Shown piece by piece: positions 1,930 through 32,703 of a stretch of DNA of 64,000 bases. A program made the position numbers and the translations under genes. The stretch lies in NCBI GenBank assembly GCA_021081985.1, contig GCA_021081985.1_3639.1. One strand, given 5' to 3'. Position 1 is the stretch's first letter; each line of letters begins with the position of its first letter. The notes under the pieces are model-generated. The model made no database searches and was not told where the DNA came from. It saw only the letters and a program-made list of their open reading frames with translations. This stretch comes from a phage.

Positions 1930-4653
1930 TTACAATGCACAACTCTCGCAGTACGGATCTTCAACTGAACTATCTGCAATCAAAGGATAGTTCTTTTTAG
2001 TTTCTTCCTCAGCTTGTTTCTTCGCGTGAAGTTCCGCTGTCAAGGAATCACCAGCACCAACCTTAGAATTTAGATAGTACCACGTTTTCATACCCACTTT
2101 TGTTGCTTTGATAAGATATCCTAACTGCTCTTTCATAGAAATCTTACCATCTTTTTGTTTGGTGTAATCAAGGTAGAGATCTGCACTGATCGCCTGCCCA
2201 GTAAATTTCTGGAACAGGGCATAAATATCTATCAGATCATTTGTTGGTGTATCCCAAGCAGATGTGTAGTAATCTTTTAATTTTTCATAATCAGGAACGA
2301 TAAAAAGAACCTGACCTTGAGGTGATTTTTTAAAGATTACATGATCACGAACAGGGTATATACCGTTTGTTGTGTTTGTTGCCAAAGACGAACTTTCGTT
2401 CGGCATGTAGGCTTCCAACACACTGTTTCTGATCCCGCCAAAATCAACAATCTCCTTGCGTAAGGACTCCCAATCCTGTTTGAGTGTAGGATCCTTCACC
2501 ACACTATCAATCGTTTTGTTGTAAGTATCAATCGGTAGCCAGCCAGATGGGTATTTTGTTTTACCAATCCACTCACAAACACCACGTTCTTTAGCTAACC
2601 GTAGACTTGCCTTATGAAGGCTGTAGCTGTGCAATTCAGCTAAATCATGTACCAACTGTTTGCTCTCAGGAGAACCATAAGGAACTCTATGTGTCGCAAT
2701 ATAATGCGCCACGTTTGTGATGCCAACACCAATAGACCTACGTTTTTTAACTGTACTCTCCATATTTTCATACGGATAGGTCATGATATCCATCACGTTG
2801 TCAATCATGAGTACGGTATAGTATGCCACATCTTCATACTCTTCTTGTTTAACTCTGCCAGCAACCAACGATGCTAGGAAGCATAAAGCAACTTCACCAT
2901 CTTCAGCATCATGCTCGAAAATGTTACGCATGTCTGAATAGCCTTTTGTTGGAAGAGATATTTCTTGGCACTGCCCAGTTAGCAAGCCATTAAACACTCC
3001 CATATGGCGTTTTGGCTCAGAAAAACAGTAGGTGTCGTCAATACGCCCATGGTCTCTGATCTCAACAACAACTTCTTTTTGTCTGGCTACCGTGTTTTGG
3101 TCTGGCAAGTTTAATTCAATAAGCTGATCCCCAACTTTTAAATCACAAGCCATTTTCTCCAACGGGTTATCTTGTAAATAAAACCTGTGATAGGGGGTAC
3201 AAGTAAGCTCTTTACCTGTACTCGTCACTACAGTAATGAGTTTCCTATTACTACCTGTTTTTCTGACAATAACCTCTGACCACTCTTCTCCATTCCACAC
3301 CTCAACAATACGATCTTTAAGGTCGGAAATGGTTTGATACCCATCCTTAGTGAGAATTTTCGTTTCTGGCGCAACACACAAATTGCTTGAATAAATAATT
3401 TCCTTAAATGGGGTGTGTCTATTCATCTCGTCAGTCCAGTAAACATAAAGTCTACCAGTTTCTGTACGCTGGGTAATTATCTCCATTGCCAAATCTCTTG
3501 CCTTAATCCAAGTTTTTGGAATAGAAGCATCCTTGGCAATCTTATCAACTTCAGAGTCAAACTCCTCCATTGTCATAGTGAACATCCCATCATGGAGTTG
3601 TGGGGCATCTTTATAAGATACCAGCATCCAATCTAGGTTTTTCGCAACACGATTGACAAAAGATTTGTTAATACCAACGGAATAATCCATTGTGTTAATT
3701 CGCTTAGATGTCACAGTCATAGGGTTACGTAAGCGAATTAATTCATCAATTTGTGGATCAAGAGCTAAGAAAGAAACTGTTGCTGAACCACCTCTGGACT
3801 GTTGCCTATTTTCTTTTACCCCAGCATCAATACCACGATAATAAGGTAGTTTACCCATATGCTTGATTGTGTTTCCTCTAACACCATCACCAATAGAGCG
3901 AGATGCTAGATAATAACCGATACCAGCTTGATTAACAGTCATCGTATATGCAACTTCTCGTGCAACACCGATGGACTTAGCTGTATCGTCTGCCTTAATT
4001 ACACAACACGAAGCATATCCTGTTTTCCCGGTACGAAGCCCGTTAAGGTATGGTGTCGGGGCGTTGATCTTAAGATCAGACAAATATGTGTACAATTTTG
4101 TCACATCTTTAATACGACGAGCCTTGGGCATATTCTTCATAACTGCCATTGCCATCCCCATAAACATCATCTGCGGGGATTCAAAAAGGATGTCATTAAC
4201 AGCGTCCTTAATACCGTACTTATCACGGAACTGTTTCAATACAGCATACCCATAAGACAGATCTTTACTATGGTCGATAACAGCTTCTAATGCTGTTAAC
4301 TCCAAGCCTGTGTATTTCATATCTTCCCAATAGCCTGAATCAACCATACGGTGATAGAAATTTGGCAAACTTGGGATTTTTGTGAACCCACCAAAGGCTT
4401 CTTTATAAATCTGCCCGACTAAAACTCTACCAGCCATCCGTGCATGTGCTTCATCTTTACGGCTAATACATGCATCTATAATAGCTTGGTTCACTTCTTT
4501 GGTTGTGCAACCATCATATAGTCTTTTATATGCGTCAAGAGCAATGTGTGACCAGTTGCCGTTGCCATCATCACCAAAAATGGCAGCTTTGTTAAGGCGT
4601 TCAGGGTCGAATACTACCTCTGACCCATCGCTTTTAATAACTTTAGTAATCAA
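1930..4653 (-). CDS. nrdA: ribonucleotide reductase large subunit NrdA, interrupted by a mini-intein
   Basis: 907 aa; active-site SSNL-C..QEISLPTK matches the E. coli SNLCLEIALPT region once residues 426-561 are removed; remaining extein about 770 aa. Confidence 0.85.
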   Translation of the reverse strand: MITKVIKSDGSEVVFDPERLNKAAIFGDDGNGNWSHIALDAYKRLYDGCTTKEVNQAIIDACISRKDEAHARMAGRVLVGQIYKEAFGGFTKIPSLPNFYHRMVDSGYWEDMKYTGLELTALEAVIDHSKDLSYGYAVLKQFRDKYGIKDAVNDILFESPQMMFMGMAMAVMKNMPKARRIKDVTKLYTYLSDLKINAPTPYLNGLRTGKTGYASCCVIKADDTAKSIGVAREVAYTMTVNQAGIGYYLASRSIGDGVRGNTIKHMGKLPYYRGIDAGVKENRQQSRGGSATVSFLALDPQIDELIRLRNPMTVTSKRINTMDYSVGINKSFVNRVAKNLDWMLVSYKDAPQLHDGMFTMTMEEFDSEVDKIAKDASIPKTWIKARDLAMEIITQRTETGRLYVYWTDEMNRHTPFKEIIYSSNLCVAPETKILTKDGYQTISDLKDRIVEVWNGEEWSEVIVRKTGSNRKLITVVTSTGKELTCTPYHRFYLQDNPLEKMACDLKVGDQLIELNLPDQNTVARQKEVVVEIRDHGRIDDTYCFSEPKRHMGVFNGLLTGQCQEISLPTKGYSDMRNIFEHDAEDGEVALCFLASLVAGRVKQEEYEDVAYYTVLMIDNVMDIMTYPYENMESTVKKRRSIGVGITNVAHYIATHRVPYGSPESKQLVHDLAELHSYSLHKASLRLAKERGVCEWIGKTKYPSGWLPIDTYNKTIDSVVKDPTLKQDWESLRKEIVDFGGIRNSVLEAYMPNESSSLATNTTNGIYPVRDHVIFKKSPQGQVLFIVPDYEKLKDYYTSAWDTPTNDLIDIYALFQKFTGQAISADLYLDYTKQKDGKISMKEQLGYLIKATKVGMKTWYYLNSKVGAGDSLTAELHAKKQAEEETKKNYPLIADSSVEDPYCESCAL
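2971..3378 (-). mobile_element. mini-intein in nrdA (about 136 aa, no endonuclease domain, C-terminal Gln)
   Basis: Insert starts CVAPETKILT (block A-like), has LTCTPYHRF (TxxH block B-like) and DTYCFSEPKRHMGVFNGLLTGQ followed by +1 Cys; Cys codon at 3378-3376 checked. Confidence 0.6.
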
Positions 4654-27928: not shown

Positions 27929-28025
27929 GCTGGGTAAGCCCTTTGGCAAGGGCGAGGATTTATAATCCTGAAAATAGACGGGCTAGCCGTTGAATACATA
28001 GGTGGTTCGATTCCATCACCCAGCC
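27929..28025 (+). ncRNA. atypical tRNA-like element (97 nt; intact acceptor, D- and T-arms, aberrant anticodon region)
   Basis: Acceptor GCTGGGT/ACCCAGC, D-arm GCCC..GGGC, T-arm GGTGG-TTCGATT-CCATC, but about 46 nt between D- and T-arms with two hairpins and no encoded CCA. Confidence 0.3.
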
Positions 28026-28226
28026 ACAAGTTTGTTTTATAGTGTATTAGCTTATATTATTCGATATAAATGCCTGATCAGCATTTGTTGTGAATGAGGC
28101 ATACAATGCGTGAGAAAGCTATCGGTGCGCAACGTTGATTTCAAACGTAGTCATGCTCGTAGAGCACCAACTGTGGAAGTTGGAGGGTGGTTGAGTAACC
28201 ATACACTATAAAGCATTCTTTAAAAT

Positions 28227-28311
28227 GGGCGGTGTCCCCACACAAGTCTTCTAAACTTGTACTTAAAAAGTGGGAAGGAAGTGAGAGGTTCGATTCCTCC
28301 ACCGTCTACCA
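28227..28311 (+). ncRNA. atypical tRNA-like element (T-arm, acceptor and CTTCTAA anticodon-like hairpin but no D-arm)
   Basis: GGTTCGATTCC T-loop, acceptor GGGCGGT/ACCGTCT plus ACCA, hairpin CAAGT-cttctaa-ACTTG; does not fold as a canonical cloverleaf by hand. Confidence 0.3.
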
Positions 28312-29057: not shown

Positions 29058-29133
29058 GGGAGTGTAGATCAGTTAGTAGATCGCTCGACCGATAATCGAG
29101 AGGACGTAGGGGCAGAGCCTACCACTCCCACCA
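29058..29133 (+). tRNA. tRNA-Ile-like (anticodon GAT) with non-canonical T-loop and C33; possibly degenerate
   Basis: Acceptor GGGAGTG/CACTCCC, D-arm GATC..GATC, loop ccGATaa, T-arm GTAGG-GGCAGAG-CCTAC. Confidence 0.4.
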
Positions 29134-30297: not shown

Positions 30298-30387
30298 GGA
30301 GAAGCAAATCGATTGGCGACGAAACCACATTGGAAATGTGCTGACTGGTAAAACGGCTTGAGAGTTCGATTCTCTCCTTCTCCACCA
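30298..30387 (+). tRNA. tRNA-Ser (anticodon GGA), type II
   Basis: Acceptor GGAGAAG/CTTCTCC, loop tTGGAaa, T-arm GAGAG-TTCGATT-CTCTC, CCA; variable arm pairs weakly. Confidence 0.5.
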
Positions 30388-31147: not shown

Positions 31148-31241
31148 GGAAGATTAACCCTAATTTGGTAAGGGGTCTCCCTGCTAAGGAGATAGTAACC
31201 CAGAAATGGGTGTGCCAGTTCAAGTCTGGCATCTTCCTCCA
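31148..31241 (+). tRNA. tRNA-Ser (anticodon GCT), type II
   Basis: Acceptor GGAAGAT/ATCTTCC, loop cTGCTaa, variable-arm hairpin ACCCA-gaaa-TGGGT, T-arm GCCAG-TTCAAGT-CTGGC, CCA. Confidence 0.65.
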
Positions 31242-31320: not shown

Positions 31321-31409
31321 GGAGGCTGGGGTGCATGGTGCACAAGCTGGTTTGAACCCAGTCCCGCTGTAGAGATATGGTGACAGTTCGATTCTGTCAG
31401 CCTCCTCCA
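31321..31409 (+). tRNA. tRNA-Ser (anticodon TGA), type II
   Basis: Acceptor GGAGGCT/AGCCTCC, loop tTTGAac, T-arm GACAG-TTCGATT-CTGTC, CCA. Confidence 0.6.
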
Positions 31410-31632: not shown

Positions 31633-31709
31633 GGATCTGTAGCCAAATGGTTTAAGGCACTCGACTTTTAATCGAGAGATTGTTGGTTCGAATCCAACCA
31701 GATCCACCA
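31633..31709 (+). tRNA. tRNA-Lys (anticodon TTT)
   Basis: Acceptor GGATCTG/CAGATCC, D-arm GCC..GGC, loop cTTTTaa, T-arm GTTGG-TTCGAAT-CCAAC, CCA. Confidence 0.8.
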
Positions 31710-31718
31710 AAATATTCA

Positions 31719-31809
31719 GGTTCTTTGACCGAGTGGTCGATGGTGACGGCCTGTTAAGCCGTTGGGAGGAATCTCCCCACCGAAGGTTCGAATCCTTCAG
31801 GAACCGCCA
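31719..31809 (+). tRNA. tRNA with anticodon GTT (Asn codons) but type-II body and G73 discriminator
   Basis: Acceptor GGTTCTT/AGGAACC, D-arm ACCG..TGGT, anticodon stem ACGGC/GCCGT with loop cTGTTaa, variable-arm hairpin GGGAG-gaat-CTCCC, T-arm GAAGG-TTCGAAT-CCTTC, disc G, CCA. Confidence 0.5.
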
Positions 31810-32219: not shown

Positions 32220-32296
32220 GGGCGATTGATGGAATTGGTATACATGTCAGGCTTAGAACCTGAATTTTGGGGGTTCGAGTCCCTCATCGCCTACCA
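32220..32296 (+). tRNA. tRNA with anticodon TAG (Leu codon CUA) but short variable arm (type-I body)
   Basis: Acceptor GGGCGAT/ATCGCCT, anticodon stem TCAGG/CCTGA with loop cTTAGaa, 5-nt variable loop, T-arm GGGGG-TTCGAGT-CCCTC, A73, CCA. Confidence 0.5.
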
Positions 32297-32627: not shown

Positions 32628-32703
32628 TGCGAGTTTGAAGTCTGGTGACTTCGCTGGTCTCATAAGCCAGTCCAGATTGGTTCGATCCCAATACTCGCAA
32701 CCA
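32628..32703 (+). tRNA. tRNA-Met/Ile2 (anticodon CAT), second CAT tRNA
   Basis: Acceptor TGCGAGT/ACTCGCA, D-arm GAAG..CTTC, loop cTCATaa, T-arm ATTGG-TTCGATC-CCAAT, CCA. Confidence 0.65.

Follow-up and report, generated by a model that had tools for sequence, protein, structure and literature searches.

The window, as we call the whole 64,000-nucleotide stretch of phage DNA that was analysed, contains at 31719-31809 on the plus strand a genuine, conserved phage tRNA gene that reads asparagine codons and carries a long extra arm. ARAGORN calls a 91-nt tRNA-Asn (gtt) that spans exactly 31719-31809 on the plus strand, with the anticodon at position 35. Rfam family RF00005 matches 31719-31806 with a score of 57 bits (gathering score 29, E 1.5e-10), so that the curated threshold is passed; in the resulting alignment the anticodon loop is CUGUUAA, and approximately 17 nt of the variable region appear as an insertion. 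The gene, its parts and its immediate upstream neighbor are as follows.

31633..31709, plus strand: tRNA-Lys(UUU) of normal length, 9 nt upstream of the Asn gene (ARAGORN; Rfam)
31719..31809, plus strand: whole gene, class II-architecture tRNA-Asn(GUU) with encoded CCA (ARAGORN; Rfam RF00005; orthologue covariation)
31719..31725, plus strand: 5' strand of the acceptor stem, GGUUCUU, paired with AGGAACC at 31799-31805 (sequence, Rfam alignment)
31728..31744, plus strand: D-arm, ACCG / AGUGGUCGA / UGGU (alignment with E. coli Ser, Tyr, Leu and Asn tRNAs; segment parse)
31746..31762, plus strand: anticodon arm, ACGGC / CUGUUAA / GCCGU (Rfam; alignment)
31753..31755, plus strand: anticodon GUU, reading AAC/AAU (ARAGORN; Rfam alignment)
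31763..31781, plus strand: extra (variable) arm of 19 nt, U + GGGAG/GAAU/CUCCC + CACC (sequence; segment parse; folding)
31764-31768 and 31773-31777, plus strand: strands GGGAG and CUCCC of the extra-arm stem, 5 bp (segment parse)
31778-31781, plus strand: unpaired 3' tail of the extra arm, CACC (segment parse)
31782..31798, plus strand: T-arm, GAAGG / UUCGAAU / CCUUC (Rfam; covariation)
31806..31806, plus strand: discriminator G73 (Rfam alignment; sequence)
31807..31809, plus strand: encoded 3' CCA (sequence; ARAGORN span)

A sequence-only reading of this locus had proposed a GUU anticodon in a cTGTTaa loop on an ACGGC/GCCGU stem, together with a well-paired long variable arm and a G73 discriminator. 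Inspection of the gene bears out this outline: ARAGORN, Rfam and direct reading agree on the anticodon arm, with both programs placing the anticodon loop where it had been drawn by hand; the discriminator is evident in the sequence and the Rfam alignment; and the arm is formed by a 5-bp stem (GGGAG/CUCCC), three of whose four shared pairs covary in 17 genes. The acceptor stem contains the pairs G1:C72, G2:C71 and U3:A70 (sequence, Rfam alignment), the D-loop is of class II style, with extra nucleotides after G18 G19 and a C11:G24 pair (alignment), and position 39 is a G, as compared to U in E. coli tRNA-Asn (alignment). The RNA folds at -38 kcal/mol and is more stable than its shuffles (z -2.7). 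In the minimum-free-energy fold the CACC tail pairs with GGUG of the D-arm, an arrangement that we regard as a folding artefact because the complementarity is absent in phages GAP31 and 4MG. No credible ORF overlapping the tRNA gene was found, and the minus-strand Rfam matches (plastid UTR families), all of which fall below threshold, are reverse-complement echoes of the tRNAs.

Examination of the surrounding DNA with ARAGORN places 14 tRNA genes on the plus strand of the window between 26046 and 32377, among which 31719-31809 is the sole tRNA-Asn; asparagine codons account for 5.1% of the 17,300 codons in the window's long ORFs. The tRNA-Lys(UUU) and tRNA-Asn genes probably share one precursor transcript. 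The order Lys-Asn-Pro is also seen in phages 18-1-2 and Av-05, and in VIK251 a Lys gene likewise lies directly upstream of the Asn gene. By ARAGORN, the complete Av-05 genome possesses the same 14 tRNAs, with the long-arm gene as its only tRNA-Asn, and this gene is again the only Asn gene in the tRNA clusters of GAP31, 4MG and PVP-SE1. RefSeq annotation further assigns to Av-05 an RNA ligase family protein and a tRNA nucleotidyltransferase. A long 'tRNA-Lys' that GenBank records place beside the Asn gene of Seunavirus phages was considered as a second clear extra-arm tRNA and set aside as unconfirmed by ARAGORN, which makes no call there in GAP31 and 4MG and reports an odd 4-base anticodon in PVP-SE1.

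The tRNA is conserved well beyond the closest relatives of this phage. Identity of the window region to its closest relative, Escherichia phage Av-05 (Avunavirus, Vequintavirinae), is 97%; the Av-05 record has no annotated tRNAs. The tRNA itself is 100% identical in Av-05 and 97.8% identical in four related E. coli phages. The 348-kb Salmonella phages 7t3 and SE_PL show 81-84% identity, as do the Seunavirus/Mydovirus phages GAP31, EC152, 4MG, LNA4 and VIK251, whose hosts are Cronobacter, Enterobacter, Escherichia and Klebsiella; in PVP-SE1 and SSE121 the figure is 77%. Annotated records of these relatives label the gene as a plain tRNA-Asn. Alignment of 17 related genes shows that 98.7% of the cells of the cloverleaf, extra arm included, are paired, and that compensatory change on both sides has occurred in 19 of the 25 pairs and touches every stem, including 7/7 pairs of the acceptor stem and three of the four shared pairs of the extra arm. 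None of 500 shuffles performed equally well, and slid controls reached only 30-51% paired. None of the 17 relatives departs from CUGUUAA in the anticodon loop or from G73, such that the orthologues uphold the GUU assignment without exception, and G2:C71 is present in only 9 of 16 distinct close-relative sequences. At the level of aligned sequence, these comparisons show the structure, including its extra arm, to be under purifying selection across Avunavirus, Seunavirus, Mydovirus and the jumbo phage 7t3. Searched against every complete E. coli genome, the 91-nt gene had no match even at E = 10; the tRNA is therefore not a captured host gene.

Long extra arms are, in the textbook account, confined to serine, leucine, bacterial tyrosine and selenocysteine tRNAs, and to our knowledge every cellular tRNA-Asn is a class I molecule that lacks one. 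The class I architecture (a 4-5 nt variable loop), which is a trait of all known cellular tRNA-Asn rather than a demonstrated identity element, is absent from the window tRNA, the variable region of which spans 19 nt. Comparison with E. coli tRNA-Asn(GUU) (asnT/U/V/W) shows that the two molecules share the anticodon loop CUGUUAA, G73 and a canonical T-loop, but that the host tRNA is a class I molecule of 76 nt, whose variable loop has 5 nt, whose D-loop is short and which carries U1:A72, whereas the window tRNA has 91 nt, an extra arm of 19 nt, a D-loop of class II type, G1:C72 in place of the U1:A72 typical of bacterial tRNA-Asn, and G39 rather than U39. The identity set of E. coli tRNA-Asn consists of G34 U35 U36 and G73, and is sufficient when moved into tRNA-Lys (PMC9976931). 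Both the anticodon bases and the discriminator are present here; because the anticodon loop and G73 are those of E. coli tRNA-Asn, the published AsnRS identity set is common to both molecules in its entirety (PMC9976931). The U1:A72 pair is needed for the GatCAB route, and is dispensable in hosts that possess AsnRS (PMC9976931). The sequence-only reading had treated G73 as an element of serine rather than asparagine identity, a distinction that fails, given that G73 is the discriminator of E. coli tRNA-Asn as well (alignment; PMC9976931).

Outside the arm, the window tRNA has the features common to E. coli K-12 tRNA-Ser (serT, serU, serV and serW), namely G73, G1:C72, G2:C71 and C11:G24, and its U3:A70 is common to serV and serW. 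Class II tRNA-Ser(GCU), as represented by Pseudomonas phage PPSC2 and by serV, shares with it G73, C11:G24, a D-loop of the form GAG-N-GG-YYGA-W and a long paired extra arm, and the match to serV extends to G1:C72, G2:C71 and U3:A70. The nearest non-Asn relative in GenBank is the PPSC2 tRNA-Ser(gct) gene (76% identity over 82% of the window tRNA), the D-arm of which is that of the GAP31 orthologue. The window tRNA differs from tRNA-Ser(GCU) in the middle anticodon base, which is U rather than C, in having four unpaired nucleotides as opposed to one on the 3' side of the extra arm, and in that G2:C71 drifts among its relatives. This last pair has been described as absolutely conserved in bacterial tRNA-Ser. 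Nearest-neighbor typing of tRNA bodies points to a Ser(GCU)-like scaffold for the subclade to which the window tRNA belongs, and is too noisy to separate a single from several origins across the long-arm family as a whole. Judged by these comparisons, the body of the window-tRNA subclade appears genuinely serine-like, and a switch from Ser(GCU) to Asn(GUU) by C35U would be its most economical origin.

The extra arm itself tells otherwise. Class II tRNAs are known to be told apart by the number of paired and unpaired nucleotides in this element, and recognition by E. coli SerRS depends on tertiary shape, not sequence (PMC9976931). At 5 bp, the window stem is within the 5-7 bp range of E. coli serine tRNAs. 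In the four E. coli tRNA-Ser compared (GCU, CGA, UGA and GGA; 4/4) and in PPSC2 tRNA-Ser, a 5-7 bp stem is flanked by one unpaired nucleotide on either side, and 80 of 85 phage tRNA-Ser extra arms have 0-2 unpaired 3' nucleotides; the window tRNA departs from the serine-type arrangement of about one unpaired nucleotide per side, with four on the 3' side. The corresponding plans are 1 + 3 bp + 3 in E. coli tRNA-Tyr, 1 + 4 bp + 2 in tRNA-Leu and 1 + 5 bp + 4 in the window tRNA. The suggestion of a serine-type body hence stands for the acceptor pairs, C11:G24 and the D-loop, which are as in E. coli tRNA-Ser, and not for the base of the extra arm. In plan, bacterial tRNA-Tyr(GUA), with its short extra-arm stem and 3-nt unpaired tail, comes closest to the long-arm Asn family; it also has G34 U35, the T-arm of the window tRNA is that of E. 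coli tyrT, and some family members have U8-U9 and Tyr-like D-arms. Tyrosine tRNAs differ in carrying A73 and A36 (anticodon GUA), as compared to G73 and U36 (GUU) in the window tRNA. In work by Himeno et al. from 1990, lengthening the arm stem of tRNA-Tyr by two nucleotides and introducing G73 reportedly led to serine acceptance in vitro.

The window tRNA proves to be one of many. A scan of viral sequences (IMG/VR) for CTGTTAA, 20-32 nt and GGTTCRAATCC, a spacing that fits only a long-arm GUU tRNA, yielded at least 115 ARAGORN-validated long tRNA-Asn(gtt) genes of 82-94 nt, at least 110 of which are in IMG/VR contigs. When the same pattern was run over 596 Gb of cellular genomes, only 9 of the 120 loci among the matches listed received a long tRNA-Asn call; five of the nine resemble archaeal genes with introns, two are solitary genes with a Ser body, and the remaining two are situated in dense tRNA arrays (11 and 17 tRNAs in 8 kb). 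A viral scan that allowed any spacing (10-32 nt between motifs, one T-loop pattern, first 120 stretches) found 11 long versus 107 short genes among the matches listed, which puts the share of arm-bearing genes at approximately 9% of viral-contig GUU tRNAs with this T-loop among the matches listed for those stretches.

To describe the family we used the 111 long Asn genes with a well-paired acceptor stem among the matches listed, 98 of them unique. Among the matches listed, G73 is present in 100 of the 111 long-arm genes, as compared to 42 of 45 short phage Asn genes, and the 1:72 pair is U:A in 54/111 and G:C in 53/111 (U:A in 51 of the 98 unique genes). U1:A72, a hallmark of bacterial tRNA-Asn, occurs in 0 of 76 phage tRNA-Ser genes. 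Conversely, G2:C71 is found in 40 of the 98 unique long Asn genes among the matches listed and in 73 of 76 phage Ser genes, and the full non-arm serine set is seen in 12 of 98 long Asn genes among the matches listed, the window subclade included. A Ser-type arm, defined as a stem of at least 4 bp with no more than 2 unpaired nt on its 3' side, is present in 12 of 98 long Asn genes among the matches listed versus 70 of 76 phage Ser genes and 4/4 E. coli Ser genes. The prevailing plan in the family is instead 0-1 nt, a 3-5 bp stem, often closed by a GNRA-type tetraloop, and then 3-4 nt of tail, for example CAUC or CACC; with 1 + 5 bp + GAAU + CACC and G73, the window tRNA fits the plan of most members. 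The anticodon loop CUGUUAA is unchanged in 97 of 98 unique members among the matches listed, and in phage sets of 19-20 isotypes (L055, L126, L088, L001 and L003) the long-arm gene alone fills the asparagine slot.

Inspection of the same loci revealed long-arm Cys, Thr, Met, Ile, Lys, Trp, His, Asp, Glu and Pro tRNAs, with the same arm plan and class II-style D-loops, often beside a normal short copy of the isotype. Their discriminators (Cys U 10/10, Ile A 10/10, Lys A 7/7, Trp G 4/4, Pro A 4/4) agree with those of the short copies. An independent scan for long-arm tRNA-Lys(UUU) produced at least 75 validated genes, spread over 70 of 117 new loci among the matches listed, and A73 in 56 of 69 such genes among the matches listed. 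As read from the genes, the discriminator of long-arm phage tRNAs is shown to go with the anticodon, whatever the isotype. Serine-bodied mistranslators would all have G73; of the indirect evidence, that the discriminators track the anticodon thus speaks most strongly for asparagine acceptance by the window tRNA. We propose to group these molecules as phage extra-arm tRNAs for class I amino acids, marked by an anticodon other than those of Ser, Leu and Tyr, the arm plan given above, the discriminator proper to the anticodon and a place in a phage tRNA cluster, and the window tRNA has all of these marks.

Body and anticodon also disagree in nematode nev-tRNAs, in Streptomyces tRNA-ProX and in anticodon variants of tRNA-Ser. 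In allo-tRNAs, a long-arm body is joined to the anticodon of an amino acid whose tRNAs are not normally of class II (PMC7609411). The identity elements of all of these molecules are those of the body's amino acid, leading to mistranslation or recoding, whereas in the long-arm Asn family the discriminator, and in half of the genes the first base pair, are those of the anticodon's amino acid. We found no description of extra-arm phage tRNAs or of a class II tRNA-Asn in the literature, in a search that covered subscription journals thinly, and the term 'variable arm' is nowhere in the recent phage-tRNA and defence papers found in that same search; a 2020 review of non-canonical tRNAs does not mention phage. 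Extra-arm tRNAs, common in phages, have apparently gone undescribed so far.

Taken as a whole, the window tRNA is probably a working elongator of class II architecture for AAC/AAU, belonging to a phage-enriched class and most likely charged with asparagine by the host AsnRS. In the history that we would propose, the scaffold of the window subclade came from a phage tRNA-Ser(GCU)-like ancestor, and the switch would have required a C35U change together with an extension of the arm's 3' base from one to four unpaired nucleotides. The longer tail would turn the arm away from the geometry recognised by seryl-tRNA synthetase, and host AsnRS would charge the product through G34 U35 U36 and G73. Class II synthetases such as AsnRS approach their tRNAs from the variable-loop side, and for this reason the extra arm may hinder AsnRS.

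A less probable reading, which nonetheless deserves some weight, gives the window tRNA a dual identity: AsnRS would recognise GUU and G73, and SerRS the class II body along with G73 and the acceptor pairs, such that some AAC/AAU codons receive serine. Partial serylation of the window subclade is conceivable because all non-arm E. coli serine elements are present along with an arm stem that, at 5 bp, is within the 5-7 bp range; phage tRNA-Ser(GCU) genes are the nearest non-Asn relatives, and SerRS ignores the anticodon (PMC9976931). Against this stand the base of the arm, with four unpaired 3' nucleotides versus one in E. coli tRNA-Ser, and the behavior of close relatives, which have kept GUU and G73 but not G2:C71. 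Ambiguity at roughly 5% of codons would, moreover, be costly, but the phage has no other tRNA-Asn.

That the molecule accepts serine with little or no asparagine charging, and so places serine at AAC/AAU, whether by design or by accident, seems improbable to us. The acceptor stem, D-arm, G73 and long arm are indeed serine-like, and natural and engineered anticodon variants of tRNA-Ser do mistranslate (PMC9976931; PMC11415595). Yet GUU and G73 constitute the full known asparagine identity set, and AsnRS should therefore compete for the window tRNA; asparagine codons are frequent (5.1%) and this is the phage's sole tRNA for them, so that a pure serine donor would be costly. The geometry of the arm is not serine-like, the family retains the asparagine hallmark U1:A72 in 51 of 98 unique genes among the matches listed, the discriminator tracks the anticodon in all long-arm isotypes, and the long-arm gene occupies the asparagine slot of otherwise complete phage tRNA sets.

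Equally improbable is a tRNA-like RNA that does not translate, serving as a decoy that soaks up host tRNA-cleaving nucleases or in some other phage function. Some phages do carry adjacent long and short copies of one isotype, and the authors of the study of AriB, the PARIS nuclease, raised the possibility that overexpressed viral tRNAs are competitive inhibitors (PMC12409363). A decoy of this kind is difficult to reconcile with the encoded CCA, the intact 7-nt anticodon loop with U33 and A37, the canonical T-loop and the conserved discriminator, or with the role of the gene as sole asparagine decoder in many phages. Finally, the sequence-only reading had entertained a recently mutated type II tRNA. 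A recently mutated or decaying gene of this type without selected function (Ser GCU to GUU, or Tyr GUA to GUU), which GUU, one base from both GCU and GUA, would allow, is effectively refuted: 77-100% identity in at least four phage lineages, conservation across phage genera with compensatory change in 19 of 25 pairs, invariance of the anticodon loop and G73, and more than 100 further examples in viral contigs together rule out a recent mutant or pseudogene.

Changes in the anticodon loop and stem of phage tRNAs have already been linked to escape from PARIS, PrrC and retron effectors. [quoted passage not shown] The T5 case differs in that resistance of its tRNA-Lys was mapped to substitutions in the anticodon stem, and the word 'variable' does not occur in that paper; when the AriB site was restored in T5 tRNA-Lys, cleavage was still absent (PMC12409363). 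All three window tRNAs are altered at this site: the Asn and Thr tRNAs have G39 and the Lys tRNA has G41; for Asn, the host counterpart asnT has U39. On the basis of these substitutions, the Lys, Thr and Asn tRNAs of the window are predicted to resist AriB. Telling against an anti-nuclease role of the arm, the anticodon loop of the window tRNA is the same as that of the host, and many long-arm Asn family members keep U39-C40.

Evasion of tRNA-cleaving host defences is a reasonable, if speculative, guess as to what the arm is for. In such a scheme the arm would constitute a change to the tRNA body by which phage tRNAs stay usable when defence nucleases destroy host tRNA-Lys, tRNA-Thr and tRNA-Asn, and in the window tRNA it would act jointly with the G39 substitution at the PARIS AriB recognition site. 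A broader proposal, which we offer tentatively and hold to be doubtful as it stands, is that phages maintain a parallel repertoire of class II architecture for class I amino acids (Asn, Lys, Thr, Cys, Met, Ile, Trp and others), each tRNA with its own identity elements, in which arm and D-loop serve as a disguise or 'self' mark against tRNases. The window tRNA might then be the Asn member found in phages of Enterobacterales, and the repertoire might afford escape from PARIS AriB, from PrrC-like enzymes, or from the phage's own nucleases that degrade host tRNAs.

Around one in ten viral-contig tRNA-Asn(GUU) genes among the matches listed, together with many Lys and some Thr, Cys, Met, Ile and Trp genes, are long-armed, and cellular genes almost never are. 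AsnRS, LysRS and similar synthetases would accordingly have to tolerate a class II body. Long-arm tRNAs would represent an unrecognised axis of phage tRNA evolution, beside changes in the anticodon loop and stem, and are possible scaffolds for the engineering of orthogonal or nuclease-resistant tRNAs. If the window subclade is partly serylated, it would furnish a case of ambiguous decoding imposed by a phage.

Among the matches listed from IMG/VR (loci L012-L131 and L365-L481), phage contigs were found to carry long-arm forms, 82-95 nt in length, of tRNAs that are normally short, with Lys, Thr(UGU), Cys, Met, Ile, Trp, His, Asp, Glu and Pro all represented (for example at L060, L047, L117, L102 and L061). 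Inspection of these same listed matches showed that a single extra-arm plan, together with D-loops of class II style, is common to the long-arm tRNAs across isotypes, that the cognate discriminator is kept within each isotype, and that a short copy of the same isotype often adjoins the long-arm gene.

Within the window, five further tRNA-like sequences lacking an ARAGORN call were evident:

27929-28025, + strand, tRNA-like gene of Ile(UAU) type; 33 bits with the Rfam tRNA model
28226-28308, + strand, tRNA-like sequence with a UCU anticodon; tRNA-Sec model only, 29.6 bits, below threshold
29058-29130, + strand, tRNA-like gene of Ile(GAU) type with an unusual T-loop; 53 bits
30134-30205, + strand, tRNA-like gene with a CCA (Trp) anticodon; Sec model only, below threshold
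32629-32698, + strand, tRNA-like gene with a CAU anticodon; Sec model only, below threshold

The first of these, with a variable region about 28 nt long, presents the anticodon UAU, a reader of the Ile codon AUA, in a UUUAUAA loop, and is possibly the phage's second extra-arm tRNA. The second pairs a 6-bp anticodon stem and a CUUCUAA loop (UCU, a reader of the Arg codon AGA) with a long variable region. AUA and AGA each account for 1.6% of window codons.

In the extra arm of the window's tRNA-Asn(GUU), the 3' tail CACC (31778-31781) is perfectly complementary to a GGUG within 31741-31745 that comprises the 3' strand of the D-stem and position 26. This pairing is used by the minimum-free-energy fold of the tRNA, and the complementarity is not kept in GAP31 or 4MG, the orthologues compared.

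The window's tRNA-Ser genes and its tRNA-Leu(UAG), together with a Leu gene of the Seunavirus GAP31, are as follows:

30298-30387, 31148-31241 and 31321-31409, + strand, the three tRNA-Ser genes
32220-32296, + strand, tRNA-Leu(UAG), in the 77-78 nt class, without a long arm
GAP31 (L001) 3791-3868, tRNA-Leu(UAA), in the same size class, without a long arm

None of the three tRNA-Ser genes carries G73, the discriminator being A73 for GGA and U73 for both GCU and UGA; U73 is likewise present in 28 of the 81 tRNA-Ser in the listed phage loci. To our knowledge the long arm is universal in cellular tRNA-Leu, whereas both Leu genes here are short-armed, and about half of the Leu calls in the listed phage loci fall below 82 nt (58, versus 53 others).

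Seunaviruses contain an additional tRNA-like gene of 84-87 nt, with Ser(UGA) on one side and the long Asn gene on the other, and labeled tRNA-Lys in GenBank:

L001 5745-5831
L003 5744-5827
L004 5848-5933

ARAGORN makes no call for this gene in GAP31 or 4MG, and assigns the PVP-SE1 copy a four-base anticodon (ggca). For the Avunavirus Av-05, the closest relative, the RefSeq record (NC_025830.1) annotates no tRNA genes, as compared with 14 found by ARAGORN; its product names, by annotation only, include a tRNA nucleotidyltransferase, an RNA ligase family protein, an endoribonuclease and a 'valyl tRNA synthetase modifier'.

Cellular-genome contigs also hold long GUU tRNAs, including two lone genes with a GTT anticodon:

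L194 6162-6250, Prevotellaceae genome
L200 3976-4064, alphaproteobacterial MAG

Both have a typical tRNA-Ser body and G73, and are candidates for either true Ser-bodied readers of Asn codons or sequencing or assembly errors. Two further contigs binned as bacterial, from a Saprospiraceae MAG (L145) and a Planctomycetota MAG (L182), place a long-arm tRNA-Asn within dense arrays of 11 and 17 tRNAs, respectively, in 8 kb, and are probably phage or prophage DNA.
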